Shown here piece after piece: positions 2,674-61,354 of a stretch of DNA of 64,000 nt. The notes under the pieces are model-generated. The model ran no database searches. It saw only the letters and a list, made by a program, of their open reading frames with translations, and was not told where the DNA came from. The stretch covers positions 277-64,276 of IMG/VR virus record IMGVR_UViG_3300044511_000089; one strand, 5' to 3'. Source of the DNA: a virus (lineage: Duplodnaviria; Caudoviricetes). Within the stretch, counting starts at the first letter, position 1. The number at the start of each line of letters is the position of its first letter. The translations under genes were made by a program, and so were the position numbers.

Positions 2674-3872
2674 GCAAAAGCATTCGCGACCTGCCGCTCG
2701 AAGTGCAGGTCGGGCAATACCGAAACGCCATTGTCAAGCATGCTGCTGACAAGGGACTCACCGAGAGGGTGGAGCAACACTTCACCCGTCTCGGCTATGG
2801 CGGCATAGATGCGTTCGTGACGAACGGCGCACCTGATGCCGAGAAGGTGGAGGAACTCAAGCGCGTGTTCCTCGCCATCTACGACGCAACGAAGGTCGGC
2901 TACCTGCTGGCAGCGGCCCCGGTCGCAGCCCCCGAGCCGGTGGCGCACACGAAGAAGCCCGACGACTCCGGCGAGCCGCTGGCCTCGTTTATTCCAGAGG
3001 TCGACCCGACCTTCGTGCTCGGGAAGGAAATGCAGAACCACTTCACGTTGGCGTGGAACGATTCGGTCAGGCGGCATCAATGCCTGTTGTTCGTCGGCCC
3101 CCGTGGATGCGGAAAGACCGAGGCTGCCAAGCAACTGGCGGCCCACGTCAAGGCTCCGTGCTTCACGAAGGACATGGGCATCGTGGAGCGACCGTCCGAA
3201 ATGTTCGGGGAGAAGGGTTACTCGCCAGAGAAGGGCACCTATTACACGACGGCGCAGTTCATCCGGTGCATCGAGGCCGGTGGCCACGTCATCGTGCTGG
3301 ATGAGGTCAGCCGTTGCCGGTCGCACATCGGCAACTCGCTGTTCCCGATTCTGGACGGGCGCGGGTCGGTGTTCCTCGAACCGTTGAACCGATGGGTGAC
3401 CGTAGGAAAGCAGACCGTGTTCATCGGCACCATCAACATCGGGGCCGAATACACGGGCACGTTCGCAATGGACGCAGCGTTGCGGGACAGGTTCAAGGAC
3501 GGCGTCGTCCTGTGTGAATACCTGAACCCGAAGGACGAAAGCCGGGTGCTCGTTGAACGCGCGGCGCAGTTCGGTCACACGTTGAAGAAGGAGGACGCGG
3601 AGTCGCTCGTGGACTTGGCCAATACGGTTCGTGCGAAGGCCGTTGGTGACGCGGCTGAATACACGCAGTCCATCAGCACCCGCCAACTGGAGGCTGCGGC
3701 CGTCAAGTTCGCCGTCGCAGGGCCGGAAAGCCTGCGGTTCACGCTCGGCAACGCCTTCCCGTGCGACGGCGCAAACCGTGAAGAAACCGAGTTCGGCAAG
3801 GTCATGGCCCTGATTCAGGGCAAGTTCCCGTCAGTCGCCGCGACGGTGACGAAGAAGAAGCGGCTCGCGTAA
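2670..3872 (+). CDS. MoxR/CbbQ/CobS-type AAA+ ATPase
   Basis: Walker A GPRGCGKT, Walker B IVLDE, sensor GTIN, MDAALRDRF Arg finger and ISTRQL sensor 2; vWA gene downstream. Confidence 0.9.
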   Translation: MSKSIRDLPLEVQVGQYRNAIVKHAADKGLTERVEQHFTRLGYGGIDAFVTNGAPDAEKVEELKRVFLAIYDATKVGYLLAAAPVAAPEPVAHTKKPDDSGEPLASFIPEVDPTFVLGKEMQNHFTLAWNDSVRRHQCLLFVGPRGCGKTEAAKQLAAHVKAPCFTKDMGIVERPSEMFGEKGYSPEKGTYYTTAQFIRCIEAGGHVIVLDEVSRCRSHIGNSLFPILDGRGSVFLEPLNRWVTVGKQTVFIGTINIGAEYTGTFAMDAALRDRFKDGVVLCEYLNPKDESRVLVERAAQFGHTLKKEDAESLVDLANTVRAKAVGDAAEYTQSISTRQLEAAAVKFAVAGPESLRFTLGNAFPCDGANREETEFGKVMALIQGKFPSVAATVTKKKRLA

Positions 3873-3908
3873 GCAGCAGAACACACACACAAAAGAGAAA
3901 GGACACGT

Positions 3909-5090
3909 ATGCCTTGGTGGGACAAGCAGGAGAAATGGGACAAGTTGGGCAGGGAGGAATCCCTGTCCGACCATTGGAACAACTGGATGGGTTACGGTGG
4001 GACGCTCACCTACTACTCAACGTTCAGGGCGGGTGACGACAAAAGCTCCGCCGAGAGTCTGGAGAGGGAGAGTCTGGAGAGGAAGAACCTTCTCTACAAC
4101 CTCATCAAGAGGCTGGCGGTCAAGGCCAACCTCATCATCAATGACGAGGAAATCGACAGGCGGCTATACCTTAAGCTGCTACATGATGGCAGTCCATACA
4201 GCGAGCGCGTGTCCAACCCGCGCTCTGACCACATCCCAATCAATCCCGACCCTTACATGGATGCAAAGGAGAATGAGCGCGGGTTTGTTCTCGACGCCAT
4301 GTCGGGTCAGGTGATGACCGAAGTGATGGCCAGAGCCACAATATGCAAGTCGGAATGGCAAAAAGCGTATGGCGCTGGCATCGCGAATGCCTCGCAGTTC
4401 GGCCTGACCATCGATGAAGGGAAGCTCGCGTTCGACCTGTTCACGATTGTCGAGGCTGCGGTCGCTCGGGACAGGCTGGTCAAGGAATGGCCGGGCTTCG
4501 TGCCGTTCCTGCAAAGACACGCCGAACTGGTCGGGCCGAAGGACGAGTTGCAGGCGTGGATAGACACCCTGCCCAAAGACAAGAAGTTCCTGAACGCCGC
4601 CATCCACGCCATCGGGTTCAACCTGACGTCGCTCGACGGCGAGACAGCCACCCTGCCGCCGTCCTACGGTGCAGGGGTCGAGGAAGCGTCCGAAATTCTC
4701 ACAGCCTCGACCAAGACGAAGCGGTTCAGTGCCGTGGTCAATGCCATCCTAGCCATGAAGAAGCACGGGTTCGTGCTGGAGGATGAAAAGGAGGGCGAAC
4801 CGCAGGGCGATGGAAAGCAACCCGGCAACGGAGGCGAAGAAGGAGAGCCACCGCCGGACGGTGAGAAGGAGAAGGAGAAGGAGAAACCGAAGCCGCCGGG
4901 CGGTGTCCGTGTCTGCAACGTCGATGAATCCAAAACCACGGAGACAATAACGGAAGTCAAGCTTGGGAATATGGATGAAGGCGACTTCGGCAAGTCGGAG
5001 TTCGAGAAGATGAAGATTCCTGACATCGAAACAACGGTGGACTACGGCAAGAGCGTCGCTGTCCTTAGAGCGAAGAAAGCTGGCAAATGA
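3909..5090 (+). CDS. CobT-N-like partner of the AAA+/vWA module, with an acidic low-complexity linker
   Basis: Lies between the AAA+ and vWA genes. The 'LFTIVEAAVARDRLVKEWPG' segment and the E/G/P-rich linker resemble the N-terminal half of phage CobT-like proteins. Confidence 0.55.
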   Translation: MPWWDKQEKWDKLGREESLSDHWNNWMGYGGTLTYYSTFRAGDDKSSAESLERESLERKNLLYNLIKRLAVKANLIINDEEIDRRLYLKLLHDGSPYSERVSNPRSDHIPINPDPYMDAKENERGFVLDAMSGQVMTEVMARATICKSEWQKAYGAGIANASQFGLTIDEGKLAFDLFTIVEAAVARDRLVKEWPGFVPFLQRHAELVGPKDELQAWIDTLPKDKKFLNAAIHAIGFNLTSLDGETATLPPSYGAGVEEASEILTASTKTKRFSAVVNAILAMKKHGFVLEDEKEGEPQGDGKQPGNGGEEGEPPPDGEKEKEKEKPKPPGGVRVCNVDESKTTETITEVKLGNMDEGDFGKSEFEKMKIPDIETTVDYGKSVAVLRAKKAGK

Positions 5091-13427: not shown

Positions 13428-14198
13428 ATGAATGACACCACAATCGATACCGTAAATGGAACACCACCACCACCAATCACCACGAGAGAGGAACAGCGCG
13501 CCGAGCGGCGGCGCAGGATAAAGGCGATTCTGGAGTTGCCTGACGGCCTTACCTTGAGGGAGGTCGCAAAGCGCATCGGTTTGCCGCGCGTCACCACGGC
13601 GTTCCTGCTGTGCAGGGATGCGGGTTATCAGACCAGACCGACTGGTCGTCCGCTTGGAACTGGCCACGGGCCTGTGCCTCTCACGACCGAACGCCTGTCA
13701 ATCCTTGAGCATGGGGCCAAGGAGAACTGGACACTTAAACAGGTCGGGGACGCCCTCGGAACCACACGCCAATACGCCAGACATCTTTACAAGCTGCATG
13801 GCATCGCACGAACGAACAGGCGTGGCGGCGGGAGAGGCCGTCCTTTGTCTGCCAAGTCATTGGCTCTCATCGAGGATGTCACCAAGAACGGGCTGAACGG
13901 CAGGACGGGGCCGCAACTGGCGAAGCAACACGGTGTGAGCGTGGTGAGAATCTATTCACTTCTGCGACCGCGCGGGTTCTTTGGTCGCACTGTGGGCAGG
14001 CGCGCCGAGTTCATGGCGTCCATCGTTGATGGTCGGGGCCGGTGCCTGTTTTGCAACACCATGCAGCCTCTGAATGACTTCCGAGGGTTCAAGTGCGGCC
14101 CGTGCTGGCGCGCAGTCATCTACCGGCTCGCACGTCAAGGTGCCAAGGAGCGGCGCGAGTTCTGGAACCTGCACCATCCGAAGGTGCCCAAGGTCTGA
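13428..14198 (+). CDS. Multi-HTH DNA-binding protein with a C-terminal Cys4 finger
   Basis: Three HTH-like repeats (LTLREVAKRIGL, WTLKQVGDALGTTRQ, TGPQLAKQHGVS); CLFC...CGPC. Confidence 0.7.
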   Translation: MNDTTIDTVNGTPPPPITTREEQRAERRRRIKAILELPDGLTLREVAKRIGLPRVTTAFLLCRDAGYQTRPTGRPLGTGHGPVPLTTERLSILEHGAKENWTLKQVGDALGTTRQYARHLYKLHGIARTNRRGGGRGRPLSAKSLALIEDVTKNGLNGRTGPQLAKQHGVSVVRIYSLLRPRGFFGRTVGRRAEFMASIVDGRGRCLFCNTMQPLNDFRGFKCGPCWRAVIYRLARQGAKERREFWNLHHPKVPKV

Positions 14199-14782: not shown

Positions 14783-15765
14783 GCGGACATGACGGCAAAA
14801 CGAACAACGAGGTATTCCCAGAGTTCCATGCGTTCCTGAGCATGACGCTGTCGGTCAGGACGTGCGACGATTACAGGCGCATCGTAACGAACTGGATGGC
14901 GTCGAAGGATGCAAACGGGACGGTGATTGGAACCAAGCTGCCCATCGACCTGACGCTGGAGGATTACTACAACTTCGTCAATGACGGGCAGATTTCGGTC
15001 AGGGGCAAGGATGGCAAGCCAACCAAGAGCGGGACGCGCAGCGTCGTTCTGGCTGCGTTGCGGAGTTACGGGAAGTTCTGCTTCGGCAAGTATGGCATCC
15101 CGAACCTTGCCTCACTGGTGAAGGTGAACATCAGGCTGATGACGCACGAGCAGCGCGAGACGGTCGAACGCCTGCCACTGTCTGACGAGGCCATGCACAA
15201 GCTGCTGAAACTGCCAGACCTGCCAGCCTTTTGGGACGCTGCCATTCGCATTGGCATCGAGACAGGACTGAGGCTGAGCGACATCTGCCAGCTTGAGGCG
15301 GCCTGCCTTGGAAAGAGCGAGTCGGGCTGTGATGTGCTGAACGTGTGGACGGACAAGCGTGACAAGCGCGTCTCGGTCCCAATCTGCGCCACCACAGCGA
15401 ACCTGATTCGCAGCATGGCCTCGACCGGGTTCCTGTTCCCGGAACAGCGTGAACAGGTTCTCGATGTCAGGCGCAGGGCGGGATTGTCGACCGCGTTCAC
15501 CCACCTGTTGAAGAAGGCGCACGTCTGGAAGCCTCATGTCAGCTTCCATTCCATCCGCCATGCCTACGTCACCAAGCTGGTCTTGGACGGGATGGCGATG
15601 GAACTGGTTGCGGAACGGGTGGGTCACTCAAGCACCAAGACCACCGATGGCTACAACCACGCGCCAAGAAAAAGGCACGAGCCGTTGACCCGTGTTACGC
15701 GCGAGGAAATGCTGAAGTCGGGAATGCACCCCGCCGTTTTTGACGTTCTCTACGGGAAGGAGTAG
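14779..15765 (+). CDS. int: Tyrosine recombinase/integrase
   Basis: Catalytic set TGLRLSD (R), K, FHSIRH (HxxR), VGHSS (H) and TTDGY (Y). Confidence 0.93.
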   Translation: MSGHDGKTNNEVFPEFHAFLSMTLSVRTCDDYRRIVTNWMASKDANGTVIGTKLPIDLTLEDYYNFVNDGQISVRGKDGKPTKSGTRSVVLAALRSYGKFCFGKYGIPNLASLVKVNIRLMTHEQRETVERLPLSDEAMHKLLKLPDLPAFWDAAIRIGIETGLRLSDICQLEAACLGKSESGCDVLNVWTDKRDKRVSVPICATTANLIRSMASTGFLFPEQREQVLDVRRRAGLSTAFTHLLKKAHVWKPHVSFHSIRHAYVTKLVLDGMAMELVAERVGHSSTKTTDGYNHAPRKRHEPLTRVTREEMLKSGMHPAVFDVLYGKE

Positions 15766-56780: not shown

Positions 56781-56945
56781 ATGGGCAAGGGAAAAACGAA
56801 GTGGGTGAAGATACGCCTCCCCATGATGACCCACGCGAAGGCGAAGGCGAAGGCCGCCATGTCGCTGATGTCGTTCGAGGAGTGGCTCGTGTCGCTCGTC
56901 GACGAGGCCGTTGAAGAACCGAAGGACAAACCAGACAAACCATGA
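56781..56945 (+). CDS. Ribbon-helix-helix (Arc/CopG-like) regulator
   Basis: WVKIRLP strand plus THAKAKAKAA and SFEEWLVSLV helices. Confidence 0.65.
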   Translation: MGKGKTKWVKIRLPMMTHAKAKAKAAMSLMSFEEWLVSLVDEAVEEPKDKPDKP

Positions 56946-57958
56946 AGAAGAAACCCGATGAACCACCCGCCGTGCAAGCGGAGGTGGTTGTTGAACCAAT
57001 GGCGCTGAGCCACGTCGAGGCGATTGAGCGCGCTCAGATTGAGGTGCTCGTTGCCACGGCGAAGAAGTTCCCAAGGAATCTGCACGCTTGCCGTCAATCC
57101 GCCCTTGAGCTTGCGACCATGACCAAGGAGATGGCTGCGGATTGCTTCTACAAAATCCCAAGAGGGGGGAAAATCATCGAAGGCAAGTCCGTGCGCCTCG
57201 CTGAAATCATCGCCTCGACATGGCAGAACATCAGGGCCGGTGCGCGCCCGGTGAGCAACGACGGCAAGCACGTTGTCGCTCAGGCGTTTTGTCACGACCT
57301 CCAAACCCATGTGCTAATCGTGCGCGAGGTGAAGCGGCGCATCACGGACAAGGATGGAAGGGTGTTCAATGAGGACATGCAAACCCTGACCGAGAACGCG
57401 GCGTGCGCGGTGGCCCTGCGCAACGCCATCTTCTCCGTCATCCCCGGTGCCTACGTGCAGACTATCTACGACAAATGCAAGCAGGTGGCCGTCGGGGACG
57501 CGACCACGCTTGAGGAACGGCGAACGAAAGCCGTCGATTACTTCAAGAAGATGGGCGTGGACGAGAGACGAATCTACCTCGCGCTCGGCGTGAAGGGCAT
57601 CGAGGACGTCGGGCTTGAACAACTCGAAACCCTGACCGGCATGAGAACCGCCATCACCACGGGGGAAGGAAAGCTGGACGACCTGTTCCCGCCCGTTCCC
57701 GCCAAGACTTCTGCTCCAACCACTGGAAAGCCCCTCCCCTCAGGCACACCGGAGGAACTGCTCAACCAACTGGCGACCCTCTGCAAGATGGCCTCCATCA
57801 CCGAGGAAAAGCTTCTCGCGTTCTGTCTCAAGGAAAAATACTTCCCCGCCGATGCCGGTGTCGCGTCCGTGGCGGACCTCGCTCAGGTCTGCCCGTCGCG
57901 CCTTCCGATGCTGGTGGGTAACTTCGGAACACTCCAACATGCCATCAAATCCTCCTGA
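56942..57958 (+). CDS. Putative ssDNA-annealing/recombination protein
   Basis: AKKFPRN..YKIPRGGKIIEGKSVRLAEIIASTWQN family, usually found next to an exonuclease; function inferred from synteny. Confidence 0.55.
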   Translation: MKKKPDEPPAVQAEVVVEPMALSHVEAIERAQIEVLVATAKKFPRNLHACRQSALELATMTKEMAADCFYKIPRGGKIIEGKSVRLAEIIASTWQNIRAGARPVSNDGKHVVAQAFCHDLQTHVLIVREVKRRITDKDGRVFNEDMQTLTENAACAVALRNAIFSVIPGAYVQTIYDKCKQVAVGDATTLEERRTKAVDYFKKMGVDERRIYLALGVKGIEDVGLEQLETLTGMRTAITTGEGKLDDLFPPVPAKTSAPTTGKPLPSGTPEELLNQLATLCKMASITEEKLLAFCLKEKYFPADAGVASVADLAQVCPSRLPMLVGNFGTLQHAIKSS

Positions 57959-59045
57959 TGTCCGGGCCGGACTCCCATCAGCATCCGGTTTCGAGCGCGT
58001 CGCAAACTGTCCCGGCTCCCATCAAGCCGTGGAGGGGCTACCTTCGGAATCATCCAAGGAGGCACAGGAGGGAACCGAGGTTGCCGAAGCCCTTGCCGGT
58101 GGTTACGAACCCGACGACAAGGAACTCGCCGAAATAGCGAAGCGGCTGACTGCCCTGACCAGCGAGGCGCGCAGTCAGTGGTATGACTCGTCAGGTCTTG
58201 TCGGTTCCGTCCACGAATCGCGGGAGAGACGGTTCTGGATACATGACTCCAAGACCGGCAAGGCAATCGGCAGCGCCCAATGCGACGTCGTGTTCCAAAG
58301 CGACAACAAGGGGCTGGTGGTCGACCACAAGACCGGGTTCCTCGCCGTCACCAAGGCCGAATACAACTGGCAGTTGAAGGTGCAGGCGGTGGCCGTTGCC
58401 GAGGAGTTCAACCTCTCCCATATCCGTGTTGCTGTTGCCCATCATCGGCTCACGTCGAAGCTGGACGTCGCCGACTTTGACGCCGACGCGCTCTCCAAGG
58501 CCCGGTGGGAAATCGAATACGCCGTCGAACGCTCGCAAGACCCGGAGGCTCCACGGTTTGCTGGCAAGTGGTGCCGTTACTGCCCCGCCAAGTCGTATTG
58601 CAGGGAGGCGATGGCTTGGGCAATCGTCGATGTCGCCGACATTGCCGTCGAGGAGGCCGTCATCATGGCCGATGTCGTTTCCGTCGAAGCCCTTCGCAGG
58701 GTCTACGAGAAGCATCAGGTCGCCGAGAAGGTCTTTGAAGCCGTCAAGAAACGGCTGCTGGCCCTCAGTGACGACACCCTGCTCTCCGTCGGGATGAAAC
58801 GCGGCAAAGGGTCAACACTCAGGAACATCAAGAACAACCCGGCGGCCATCCGACTCGCGGTCGAGGCGTTCGGTGACCCCGTGGTGGATGCCAGTTGCAA
58901 GCTGATGCTCGGTGAACTGGAGGCTGCCTTGGCCGAAGCCGGGGGTCACACCGAGCACGAGGCGAAGGTAATGGTGAACACCGCACTGGCTGACGTCATC
59001 GAGTTCAAGGAAGGCGCTCCCAAACTCGTCGTCCTGCCTTCGTAG
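57939..59045 (+). CDS. Cas4/DUF2800-like PD-(D/E)XK exonuclease
   Basis: SAS..ANCPGS, EGT, D..VVDHKTG, QLKVQA and WCRYCPAKSYC (Fe-S Cys pattern). Confidence 0.85.
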   Translation: MPSNPPDVRAGLPSASGFERVANCPGSHQAVEGLPSESSKEAQEGTEVAEALAGGYEPDDKELAEIAKRLTALTSEARSQWYDSSGLVGSVHESRERRFWIHDSKTGKAIGSAQCDVVFQSDNKGLVVDHKTGFLAVTKAEYNWQLKVQAVAVAEEFNLSHIRVAVAHHRLTSKLDVADFDADALSKARWEIEYAVERSQDPEAPRFAGKWCRYCPAKSYCREAMAWAIVDVADIAVEEAVIMADVVSVEALRRVYEKHQVAEKVFEAVKKRLLALSDDTLLSVGMKRGKGSTLRNIKNNPAAIRLAVEAFGDPVVDASCKLMLGELEAALAEAGGHTEHEAKVMVNTALADVIEFKEGAPKLVVLPS

Positions 59046-59074
59046 TTGACTCGCACTCCATGAATCATTAACGT
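59046..59074 (+). promoter_or_regulatory. Sigma70 promoter of the replication operon
   Basis: TTGACT-N17-TAACGT. Confidence 0.65.
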
Positions 59075-59080
59075 CCACTC

Positions 59081-59255
59081 GTTCACCGAAAGGCGAACCG
59101 GCGATTGGAAAACCGCCGTCTCTTAACACCGACATGACAACCTCAGAAATCGCAAAGCAGTCCTCGGTGCCAATGGGCTTCTACTCGCGCAAGCGGGCGG
59201 TGTTACCCGTTTTCCACCGCCGAGGATTGCTTTGCGGATTCTCAGGTGTCATGTG
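59081..59255 (+). ncRNA. Structured leader / antisense RNA switch (C4/CI-like)
   Basis: GAAA hairpin 59081-59098; hairpin 59099-59118; long stem 59133-59169/59218-59253; 59099-59113 is complementary to 59209-59222. Confidence 0.6.
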
Positions 59256-59256
59256 A
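59134..59256 (+). CDS. 40-aa leader peptide coupled to the initiator
   Basis: MTTSEIAKQ...FSGVM; its TGA overlaps the GTG start of the next gene. Confidence 0.45.
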   Translation: MTTSEIAKQSSVPMGFYSRKRAVLPVFHRRGLLCGFSGVM

Positions 59257-60068
59257 AAGCCCCATCCTTCCAGTTCTACGCTGACGACTTCATTGGCGGA
59301 ACGGCATCCTTCTCTCAGGCCGAAACCGGCGCTTACGTCCGCCTGCTTTGCTACCAATGGGGTAATGGCTTCATCCCGTCCGCGCTTGAGAAGATGAAGA
59401 ACGTCGCGGGTGGAGAAGTGACTGAGGATGTGCTTGCCAAGTTCCCGGTGTGGCCAGACGGCAAGCGGAGGAATGAACGGCTCGAAAACGTCCGGCATGA
59501 ACGGGCTGACTTCATCGAAAGCCAGAGGGAAAAAGGCCGCAAGGGGGCCAAGAAGCGATGGGCCAAGGATAGCCGGGGCCATCCTCCGGACATCAATGGG
59601 CCAATAGCCGGGCCAATGGCCCACGATAGCTCTCCAGTCTCCAGTCTCCAGTCTCCTAATAATAATAAGCCAAATGGTGAATTGCTTCTGGATGATTATG
59701 CCCTGAACGGCGAACGACCATGCACCAAGAAACCGAACAGCCTGCCTCCATCACTCGACAACCCAACCTTCAGGAAGGTTTGGTCCGACTTCATCATGTT
59801 CAGGAAGCAGGCAAGGAAGCCCCTTACACCTATCTCAGAGCAGCGAATGTGGGAAAAGCTGTCCAGACACCCGCTCAGCACCGTAATCGCGACCGTTGAA
59901 CTATCCATTGAGCGCGGCTGGTTGGGTGTTTTCCCCGAAGCTGTTATTAATAAACAACCTGCAACCGTCACGCCTTCAAAACCAGTGATTGAGGAATCCG
60001 ACGAGGCGTTCTTCGAGCGGACAGGGATGACGAAGGCGGAGGCGGCTCAAATCGTGAAATGCCTATGA
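59253..60068 (+). CDS. Replication initiator (DUF1376/YdaU-type N-terminus, lambda O-like)
   Basis: KAPSFQFYADDF..GAYVRLLCYQW; C-terminal W..F..RK...SIERGW.G; followed by DnaB. Confidence 0.85.
   Translation: MKAPSFQFYADDFIGGTASFSQAETGAYVRLLCYQWGNGFIPSALEKMKNVAGGEVTEDVLAKFPVWPDGKRRNERLENVRHERADFIESQREKGRKGAKKRWAKDSRGHPPDINGPIAGPMAHDSSPVSSLQSPNNNKPNGELLLDDYALNGERPCTKKPNSLPPSLDNPTFRKVWSDFIMFRKQARKPLTPISEQRMWEKLSRHPLSTVIATVELSIERGWLGVFPEAVINKQPATVTPSKPVIEESDEAFFERTGMTKAEAAQIVKCL
59545..59668. repeat. Putative origin (iterons plus AT tract) inside the initiator gene
   Basis: GGGCCA x5, ATAGCCGGG x2, (TCTCCAG)x3 at 59631-59656 and TAATAATAATAA at 59657-59668. Confidence 0.6.
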
Positions 60069-61354
60069 GCTACGGATTAGACCCTGAGCAGGGCATCCTG
60101 TCGTGTATCTTCTCGGACCAGAAGGTGATGGCCGAAGTGGTGGCGAGCGGACTGACTGAGAAGTGGTTCTACGACCCACGGCATCAGGTCGTCTTTCTCG
60201 TAATGCAACGGCTTTACAACAGAGCCTCAAACCCTTCCATGCCAGCAGTTTGGGGCAACGCGACCAATGACGAGAAACAAGCGATGGGTGGAATGGCTTA
60301 CTACCAAGAGGTTGTGGATGCGGCTTCAAGCCCCTCTCATTGGCCCGAGTTCCTTAGGCAGCTTAGAGAAGCTGCGAAGAAAAGGTTCCTTGCCGAGGTG
60401 TGCGTGAGGGCGTCTCAACAAGCTCTTGGCGAAGGCATGGTTGACATCGAGGGGCTTAGGAAAGCCCTGACGGACATCGACAAGGACGACTCGACGGGCG
60501 GCAGGGGTGGGAAACAACTGGCCCAAGACTTCATCCAACGGGTCGAGGAACGGATGAAGCTGAACGGTGCGCTACCCGGAATACCAACGGGGTTTCCACG
60601 GCTGGACTACCTCACGGGCGGGTTGTTGAACGAGCAGTTCGTGATTGCTGCGCGAACGAGTCATGGCAAAACGTCGATGGGGCTTTGCCTCGTGCACAAG
60701 GCATGTCTCGTTGAGCGGATACCCACGCTGATTCTCAGCGCAGAGATGACGGCCACGGCACTTGTCACAAGGCTGTGCGCGATGCACACCAGCATACCGG
60801 CACGGGACTTCAAGCACGGCACGCTGCACGAGGACGACTTGAAACGCATTGTGCTGTTCAACGCGCTCATTGCCAACGCACCGCTCTACATCGTCGAGGA
60901 CTTGGCCATGACAGCGGCCAAAGCCTGCGCACAAATCCGAAGACACGCGGCAATGGGTGTCAGGATGGTGCTGGTGGATTACCTTCAGAAGCTCAAGCCA
61001 TTTGAGAAGAACGAGAAACGCACCTACGAGGTTGGCGGTGTCAGCGAGGCGTTACGGTCGGCAGCCATCGAGAGCAATGTGGCGCTCGTGACCCTTGCGC
61101 AGTTGAACAGGGAACCAGAGAAAGACAAGGGCAGACCGCCAAGGCTTTCCGACATCAAGGACTGCGGAGGGATTGAGCAGGACGCCGACACCGTTGGATT
61201 GTTGACCCGCTCGTTCAGCACCTCGGACCCGTCGGGTGAACAGGCGTCGCTGTATATTGCAAAGCAAAGGGACGGCGGCCTTGGAACCATCCCGCTGTTC
61301 TTCAATGCGAAGTTCACGCGGTTTGAAACACCACCCGACCCGATGGCCCCATGA
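60065..61354 (+). CDS. dnaB: DnaB-like replicative helicase
   Basis: GIPTGF, ARTSHGKT, SAEM, LVDYLQ, LAQLNR, IEQDAD and KQRDG. Confidence 0.95.
   Translation: MSYGLDPEQGILSCIFSDQKVMAEVVASGLTEKWFYDPRHQVVFLVMQRLYNRASNPSMPAVWGNATNDEKQAMGGMAYYQEVVDAASSPSHWPEFLRQLREAAKKRFLAEVCVRASQQALGEGMVDIEGLRKALTDIDKDDSTGGRGGKQLAQDFIQRVEERMKLNGALPGIPTGFPRLDYLTGGLLNEQFVIAARTSHGKTSMGLCLVHKACLVERIPTLILSAEMTATALVTRLCAMHTSIPARDFKHGTLHEDDLKRIVLFNALIANAPLYIVEDLAMTAAKACAQIRRHAAMGVRMVLVDYLQKLKPFEKNEKRTYEVGGVSEALRSAAIESNVALVTLAQLNREPEKDKGRPPRLSDIKDCGGIEQDADTVGLLTRSFSTSDPSGEQASLYIAKQRDGGLGTIPLFFNAKFTRFETPPDPMAP

Follow-up and report, generated by a model that had tools for sequence, protein, structure and literature searches.

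A covarying leader RNA with a predicted long-range pseudoknot at the head of phage replication genes, and its probable role in translational control

What is encoded in the gap that precedes the replication gene of a tailed phage, and does it act as RNA, as DNA or through a small protein? The question is raised by positions 59046–59256 of a 64,000-nucleotide (nt) stretch of viral DNA (Duplodnaviria; Caudoviricetes; positions 277 to 64,276 of IMG/VR virus record IMGVR_UViG_3300044511_000089). This stretch, hereafter the window, is nearly all of a 64,276-bp record that is classed as linear and about 82% complete. An earlier note, made from the letters alone, had described here a two-state RNA switch with a small open reading frame (ORF) placed on the start codon of the replication gene, and had proposed RNA-based control of replication or immunity. 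Control at the RNA level is supported by the present analysis, in the form of a leader element that heads replication genes and has conserved parts and covarying pairings. This leader is probably a cis-acting translational control element, in which the synthesis of the replication protein would depend on translation of the leader ORF and would be modulated by a pseudoknot.

The leader is composed of the following parts.

59046–59074, + strand: promoter-like sequence TTGACT-N17-TAACGT, with the predicted transcript start at the foot of the first hairpin
59081–59098, + strand: HP0, the 5'-terminal hairpin, with a GAAA tetraloop, six pairs and one A-C mismatch (-5.9 kcal/mol), present in the minimum free energy (MFE) structure
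59099–59118, + strand: SL-I, a CGGCG stem with a 10-nt loop, present in the MFE structure; loop positions 59106–59113 are the 5' partner of the long-range contact
59132–59253, + strand: long hairpin of ~120 nt (-67.5 kcal/mol)
59132–59149 with 59238–59253, + strand: basal interrupted helix of the long hairpin
59150–59169 with 59218–59237, + strand: uninterrupted 20-bp stem of the long hairpin
59170–59217, + strand: apical domain of the long hairpin
59209–59222, + strand: target of the SL-I loop; its core (59209–59216) is in the internal loop of the 3' side, immediately above the long stem, and 59218–59222 overlaps the top of the 3' arm
59134–59256, + strand: leader ORF of 40 codons (MTTSEIAK...GVM), whose TGA overlaps the GTG at 59253 as GTGA
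59244–59248, + strand: Shine-Dalgarno-like motif AGGTG, inside the basal helix
59253–59255, + strand: GTG start codon of the replication gene, its G paired in the basal helix

The RNA of positions 59075–59270 folds with an MFE of -85 kcal/mol, against a mean of -57.5 kcal/mol for shuffled sequences (z = -6.26, with none of 200 shuffles as stable). All strings quoted in the earlier note are found in place, and both of its small hairpins appear in the MFE structure. The pairing that it had drawn between 59152–59169 and 59218–59235 comprises 18 bp, including two G-U pairs, and the full uninterrupted helix has 20 bp. The extension formed by CATGACAACC (59133–59142) and AGGTGTCATG (59244–59253) has 8 pairs out of 10 positions, with 7 in an unbroken run, and its final paired base is the G of the GTG codon. 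The basal helix has the leader ATG on one strand and AGGTG together with the G of GTG on the other, and an A/C-rich linker carrying the leader ATG connects SL-I with the long hairpin. The pairing probability in the window fold is 0.89 for positions -14 to -5 and 0.76 for the GTG start codon. The element is present as a single copy in the phage record; elsewhere in the window neither the element nor its target recurs more than expected by chance (11 matches to the target at no more than 3 mismatches, with 9.5 expected). An intrinsic terminator or attenuator was rejected, as no U-run follows either SL-I or the long hairpin.

Scanning IMG/VR for exact 18-mers of the window leader gave 0 matches. 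Searches with the leader and its peptide by blastn, nhmmer and tblastn returned nothing significant among 84 and then 164 related loci, i.e. those encoding relatives of the downstream replication protein. Since close relatives of the leader were lacking, covariation was taken from distant members found by structure. When the 150 nt before the start were folded, z was below -3 in 32 of 103 dereplicated relatives, and in 19 of about 100 loci an uninterrupted stem of 15–22 bp was located at a fixed distance from the start. The 5' arm of this stem begins at -79 to -103 and its 3' arm ends at -12 to -19; its length is 20–22 bp in 12 loci. The shared anatomy consists of one or more small hairpins, an A/C-rich linker with an ATG, the long hairpin, and an ORF of 31–42 codons that ends as ATGA on the next gene.

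Model R1, a covariance model trained on seven relatives with the window left out, recognizes the window at 59091–59256 on the + strand over its full length (1–151), with 40.3 bits (E = 1.9e-6 in 507 kb, or 2.3e-7 in the window alone), while the minus strand scores 17 bits. Model R2, which has the window in its training set, gives 84.5 bits. A cmscan of positions 58000–60500 against Rfam 15 with permissive filters and E ≤ 10 reported only an unrelated Streptomyces-metK match (59862–59989, 16 bits), and no Rfam family reached its gathering score in 20 relatives. By these comparisons the leader is a distinct, well-covarying RNA family missing from Rfam 15. In bacteria, the family model matched only the genome known to hold the member L003 (1 of 4 entries; 1 of 151 genomes sampled from its family).

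The genes that follow the leader are varied. They comprise DUF1376 genes and two other PHROG families annotated as replication initiation proteins (phrog_9474 and phrog_16167), and the leader also precedes an HNH gene, or ORFs of 12 and 70 codons that are themselves coupled to the next gene. As annotated, at least three unrelated types of replication-initiator gene are thus preceded by the leader, and this variety suggests a cassette that travels with replication operons and not with one protein family.

Pairing was evaluated in alignment A3, of 18 rows, and in alignment A4, which holds 24 matches (18 distinct) from an independent DNA-pattern scan of IMG/VR, all 24 of them confirmed by the covariance model. 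In A3, 93.4% of the cells are paired, compared with 73.7% after shuffling and 31–51% with slid partners, and 26 of 40 pairs changed on both sides; in A4 the corresponding values are 94.4%, 82.6% (shuffled) and 20 of 40 pairs. These figures lean towards the structure, because A3 and A4 alike were fitted to the nested helices and kinship among their rows raises the shuffle controls; in A4, moreover, the arms of the long stem were fixed by the search pattern. G-U pairs are conserved (e.g. in 16 of 18 rows of A3 at one pair), which indicates that it is the RNA of the + strand that folds. Of the elements in the earlier note, the hairpin, leader ORF and loop-target complementarity are conserved in the relatives, and the pairings covary.

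The long-range contact is formed between the SL-I loop and the 3' side of the long hairpin. The complementarity that had been read between 59099–59113, which covers the loop of SL-I and its 5' arm, and 59209–59222 amounts to 8 bp and 5 bp around a small internal mismatch (duplex energy -17.1 kcal/mol), and in the window fold the unpaired probability is 0.73 for the core of the loop and 0.65 for the core of the target. All 18 rows of A3 show complementarity of 5–8 bp, with an 8-bp core in the window. The covariance model contains no pseudoknot encoding, and the loop and target columns are aligned by position alone; their six pairs are formed in 82.2% of the cells in A3 and 94.4% in A4, with five of the six changed on both sides in each alignment. 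For 12 loop classes the own-pair complementarity sums to 80, whereas permuted pairs have a mean of 41.9 with a standard deviation of 4.8, and none of 200,000 permutations is as high. These model-defined columns replaced a naive complementarity scan of the 77-nt upstream regions against the apical 3' halves, which was too noisy (own mean 7.3, others 5.4). Compensated single changes are also observed between close relatives, from G-C to C-G (L040 vs L147) and from G-C to A-U (L172 vs L179).

Folding predicts both partners of the contact to be single-stranded in each of the 22 members examined (mean unpaired probability 0.79 for the loop and 0.87 for the target, with 0.33 for the hairpin overall). 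The target ends 27–37 nt before the start and directly 5' of the 3' arm of the long stem, again in 22 of 22 members, and only some of them, the window included, extend the complementarity into the long stem. Since the target core of the relatives is located in an unpaired internal loop beside the long stem, the contact would be a pseudoknot able to coexist with the stem. As modeled, it is an H-type pseudoknot that can stack on the long stem.

The leader ORF is present as the earlier note described it, and its frame is a conserved property of the family. In a set of 27 members, which contains the close relatives L091/L133, L003/L036, L157/L164 and L016/L119, all 27 keep the overlapping frame open over 33 codons or more, compared with 11 and 14 of 27 for the other two frames, and an in-frame ATG at -92 to -125 is found in 21. 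In 15 further loci the ATGA overlap is seen in all 15 and the leader ATG in 14. Among the starts listed across 165 related loci, 157 read ATGA or GTGA, with an overlapping stop in the +1 frame; in the starts displayed from these loci, second-codon serines are AGC or AGT. This gene class appears, from its start codons, to be routinely coupled translationally to whatever precedes it.

The leader peptides themselves are poorly conserved except for an M-(K)-T-T start. The window peptide has no Pfam or PHROG match, and its best tblastn hit among the 164 loci (E = 0.027 over 16 residues) is at an unrelated place. This divergence fits a leader whose translation, and not its product, matters. Many members have no Shine-Dalgarno motif before the main gene, which fits a termination-reinitiation process. 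A frameshift fusion of the leader and main frames was rejected, as the main frame extends upstream without interruption in just 11 of 27 members.

In the case of the promoter, the TTGACT-N17-TAACGT sequence reported earlier is present in the window, although under the threshold of the consensus scanner, and its backing comes from the relatives: 10 of 22 family members have an exact TTGACA, followed after 16–17 nt by TAnnnn, immediately before their first hairpin. Because a promoter-like site is conserved at this place, the 5' end of the RNA is likely at the foot of HP0. The first hairpin is frequently closed by a GNRA tetraloop (GAAA, GAGA or GCAA in the window, L123, L016, L119, L091, L147 and L040), which hints at a role in tertiary docking or as a stabilizer of the 5' end.

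According to the mechanism that we consider probable, the closed hairpin would block direct initiation at the replication gene. A ribosome would load on the leader AUG, probably during transcription and before the 3' strand exists, and would unwind the hairpin, terminate at the UGA, and reinitiate at the overlapping GUG or AUG, so that the output of replication protein would follow the translation of the leader. The pseudoknot that the loop of SL-I makes with its target would stack on the long stem and may favour the open, translatable state, by analogy with the IncI/IncB plasmids, acting by holding the 3' strand and/or by leaving the basal helix, with its start codons, unpaired; this contact would, in addition, offer a site for regulation. 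The least certain step is the direction of the pseudoknot effect, and on this analogy activation is only slightly favoured over repression. By geometric reasoning, a linker of 25–31 nt would have to pass along the two-turn stem to bring SL-I to the internal loop, and this path seems hard to combine with a closed basal helix. The linker geometry would also explain the fixed length of the stem.

The closest analogue of this arrangement is the repY-repZ control of IncI/IncB plasmids rather than P1 C4 or P4 CI. In the excerpts available of PMC4705826, the GUG start of the ColIb-P9 rep gene is masked by a stable structure, and its translation is induced by a leader peptide and a pseudoknot between a loop and a downstream segment; in those of PMC4705826 and PMC8053102, the start of the ColIb-P9 and IncB rep genes is kept accessible by this pairing, and an antisense RNA competes for the loop of the upstream stem-loop. 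The rep leaders of the I-complex (ColIb-P9 repY/repZ with Inc RNA; pMU720 repB/repA), as far as these excerpts describe them, resemble the phage leader in several respects. They control translation of an initiator gene; the start codon (GUG in both ColIb-P9 and the window) and a weak Shine-Dalgarno sequence are masked by a stable stem-loop; a short leader ORF ends at or next to the rep start and is followed by reinitiation, an anatomy matched in the phage, where the coupling is deduced; and an upstream stem-loop reaches with its loop across about 100 nt to a downstream segment, forming a pseudoknot that in the phage is backed by covariation. Coupling through a leader peptide is also described in the excerpts of PMC8053102 for IncFII R1 (tap/repA) and IncI2 (repR/repA), where the leader-peptide ORF overlaps the rep start and rep translation depends on it. 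R1 and IncI2 have an antisense RNA and no pseudoknot, whereas in the phage leader the pseudoknot is supported and an antisense RNA is not. Compared with the I-complex, there is no sequence or Rfam relationship, the protein families differ (DUF1376/O-like in the phage), and the phage leader is located before several unrelated initiator genes. The loop motif of the I-complex plasmids is not known to vary, while the phage loop varies between lineages. In the 'Min Jou' interaction of MS2 coat and replicase, a translating ribosome likewise opens a long-range pairing that hides a downstream start; that is an interaction within the coding region of an RNA phage, and it has neither a dedicated leader ORF nor a loop-loop contact.

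A number of observations weigh against the translational control outlined here, in addition to the lean of the alignment figures mentioned above. Unlike in ColIb-P9, the target is away from the Shine-Dalgarno sequence: it is placed 27–37 nt before the start, behind the 3' arm of the 20–22-bp stem, and is exposed in the internal loop and not buried, mostly without overlapping the long stem, so that an 'anti-hairpin' role is not evident. Of the two competing folds proposed earlier, the complementarity is real and covarying, but mutual exclusivity is weak, as in the window the nested alternative costs 31 kcal/mol in stability (-53.9 instead of -84.7 kcal/mol). A sigma-70-like promoter on the opposite strand, from which a countertranscript like that of the I-complex could start, is not conserved among 22 members (the best sites match at 6–9 of 12 positions and are scattered), with the limit that the promoter type of the hosts may differ. 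The leader ATG has no Shine-Dalgarno motif and is paired with a probability of 1.00 in the window fold, so that initiation needs a kinetic, co-transcriptional window, which is assumed. Six of the 27 members have no ATG in the overlapping frame; two of these have an in-frame GTG, two use another frame, which ends from a few to ~40 nt past the start, and two are unexplained. The window's own leader has no close relative in the collections searched. The sequencing-run search listed no RNA run containing the stretch, and the contigs of four lake metagenome runs are identical to positions 58800–59600 wherever these are covered, with no micro-variation.

The surroundings of the leader form a recombination and replication module, all on the + strand.

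56942–57958, + strand: ORF matching phrog_3657 (unknown function)
57852–59045, + strand: DUF2800/PD-(D/E)XK exonuclease
207 nt, + strand: gap between the exonuclease and the replication gene, holding the leader RNA
59253–60068, + strand: replication gene (271 aa, GTG start), with a DUF1376-like N-terminal domain and an O-like replication-initiation C-terminal part
60059–61354, + strand: DnaB helicase gene (DnaB_C, 2.5e-61), overlapping the replication gene

The GTG at 59253 is taken as the start because the N-terminus of the replication protein, VKAPSFQFYADDF, resembles that of the relatives, MKAPAFQFYADDF. The protein scores 24 bits with PF07120 (DUF1376), under the cut-off of 30.1, and matches phrog_9327 (primosomal protein, 3.9e-16) and phrog_678 (replication initiation O-like, 1.3e-9). 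Inside its gene, a 12-mer is found in two copies (59598–59621) and a 7-mer in 3.7 copies (59631–59656). The region 59598–59699, between the DUF1376-like and O-like parts, contains these repeats followed by a (TAA)n run, with the GC content dipping to 0.37; it resembles iterons with an AT-rich region, like those of the lambda origin, which sits within gene O, and is a candidate origin of replication. Near-identical DNA is present in lake-water metagenome runs, and the stretch was found in 12 lake-water DNA runs. The record also encodes a tyrosine integrase (PF00589, 62.9 bits, window positions ~15232–15663; G000:C1:15508–15939), and the phage is therefore probably temperate. About 1.6 kb upstream of the integrase, a 261-aa frame has an HTH_3 match of 14.3 bits, below the cut-off (~13518–13595), which suggests a possible repressor candidate in a phage where the earlier note had seen no cI repressor.

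Within the family, the locus L041 has a truncated DUF1376 N-terminus (95-aa frame, 3001–3246), then the leader (30.2 bits with R2, z = -4.24), and then a full-length DUF1376 gene (3278–4106), an arrangement suggestive of a partial duplication, or of a scar left by recombination, at the leader. A second type of leader is seen in L018, L019, L053, L042, L009 and L027, in the ~150 nt before a DUF1376 start of the MNEDKKTRK type (z from -3.4 to -6.1). Its stems are shorter (8–11 bp) and it is missed by models R1 and R2. In L018 the loop of the upstream hairpin is again complementary to a downstream segment, and this second type is possibly a diverged branch of the same design.

Other explanations of the leader can be weighed against cis-acting translational control. 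A sense-strand riboregulator resembling C4 or CI would have HP0 and SL-I excised as a small stable RNA, whose loop pairs in cis or in trans with targets in leader transcripts. It would shut off (or, like IsrK of Gifsy-1, turn on) the replication operon of the same phage or of incoming relatives, resulting in RNA-based immunity or incompatibility with lineage-specific key-lock pairs. The topology agrees with this, namely a promoter, a hairpin with a complementary loop, a downstream target on the same strand, and a small ORF coupled to the next gene. In the excerpts available of PMC4825925 and PMC8198154, the same layout is described for P1/P7 C4 (immI, c4-icd-ant) and for P4 CI; according to PMC4825925, as excerpted, the leader-derived CI RNA of P4 pairs with seqA and seqC and blocks the P4 replication genes, and IsrK acts on its own long isoform. 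In the phage family, the loop and target exist as at least 12 sequences with compensated changes while the stem of SL-I is nearly invariant, as expected of a specificity determinant; neither partner is buried in the folded RNA, so a kissing contact in trans is possible, and the integrase makes a temperate phage probable. Membership in the C4 family, which the earlier note had entertained, is not borne out, however: neither C4 nor another Rfam family matches the leader at E ≤ 10, or the 20 relatives at gathering score, and the target is inside the leader ORF (~75 nt within it, at about codons 26–28, and 31–44 nt ahead of the main start) and does not cover a ribosome-binding site. A single target is present, not two, and the window has no second copy beyond chance; a contact of 6–8 bp would not halt an elongating ribosome; no terminator-like U-run follows SL-I; and no RNA run with the sequence is listed that could show a processed species. 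The family-averaged identity of the loop (0.59, against 0.44–0.51 for the linker and apical parts) indicates that the loop is not more variable than its surroundings. A riboregulator of this kind is thus unlikely, and it is equally doubtful that the SL-I loop and its target are the key and lock of an RNA-only immunity or incompatibility acting in trans on the replication leaders of relatives. If this were true, lake phages would have diversified 6–8-nt pairs, in at least 12–19 versions in the loci seen, escaping each other's control, and the system would correspond, in phages, to the incompatibility groups of plasmids and could move between unrelated initiator genes.

The constancy of the stem (20–22 bp, or two helical turns, in 12 loci) could instead reflect an RNase III element, in which the duplex is cut either to free the downstream start or to destroy untranslated mRNA, the ORF and the loop contact being secondary. 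The minimal length of an RNase III substrate matches such a stem, and cleavage by this enzyme in the lambda N and T7 early leaders frees a downstream start. Neither the conserved open frame with its ATGA overlap nor the covarying loop-target contact is explained by cleavage, which is compatible with translational control as an added layer but not as its replacement; on its own, we give it a low probability. A long imperfect inverted repeat adjoining a replication gene may also suggest a DNA-level element, such as a replication origin or cruciform, an operator palindrome, or an inserted miniature inverted-repeat element. This is very improbable: the conserved G-U pairs are A-C mismatches on the other strand, the minus strand reaches 17 bits against 40.3, the record holds one copy, the arms contain a conserved reading frame and a start codon, and the region 59598–59699 inside the gene, with its tandem repeats and AT-rich dip, is a better origin candidate. 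Least credible is a functional small protein encoded by the 40-codon ORF, with the RNA structure incidental. The frame is open in all members and the M-(K)-T-T N-terminus recurs, but neither Pfam nor PHROG gives a match to the window peptide, tblastn finds no relative in the 164 loci, and the peptides differ widely between members while the base pairing is kept.

In general, the use of a leader peptide, a masking hairpin and a long-range pseudoknot to control an initiator gene is textbook knowledge for a few enterobacterial plasmid groups. No description of such leader control in the replication module of a double-stranded DNA phage was found in the open-access literature searched, which is not proof that none has been published. 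The presence of the family in dozens of uncultured lake-phage contigs, upstream of three or more unrelated initiator families, points to a regulatory cassette that is portable, and to a logic, either convergent or shared, behind the control of plasmid copy number and of phage replication. The loop-target pair, being variable, offers a testable handle on RNA specificity determinants for phage immunity or incompatibility, and the fixed two-turn stem with its fixed linker length is a tractable object for structural work on RNA. The leader most likely sets the amount of replication protein that is made, in a way similar to the copy-number control of some plasmids.

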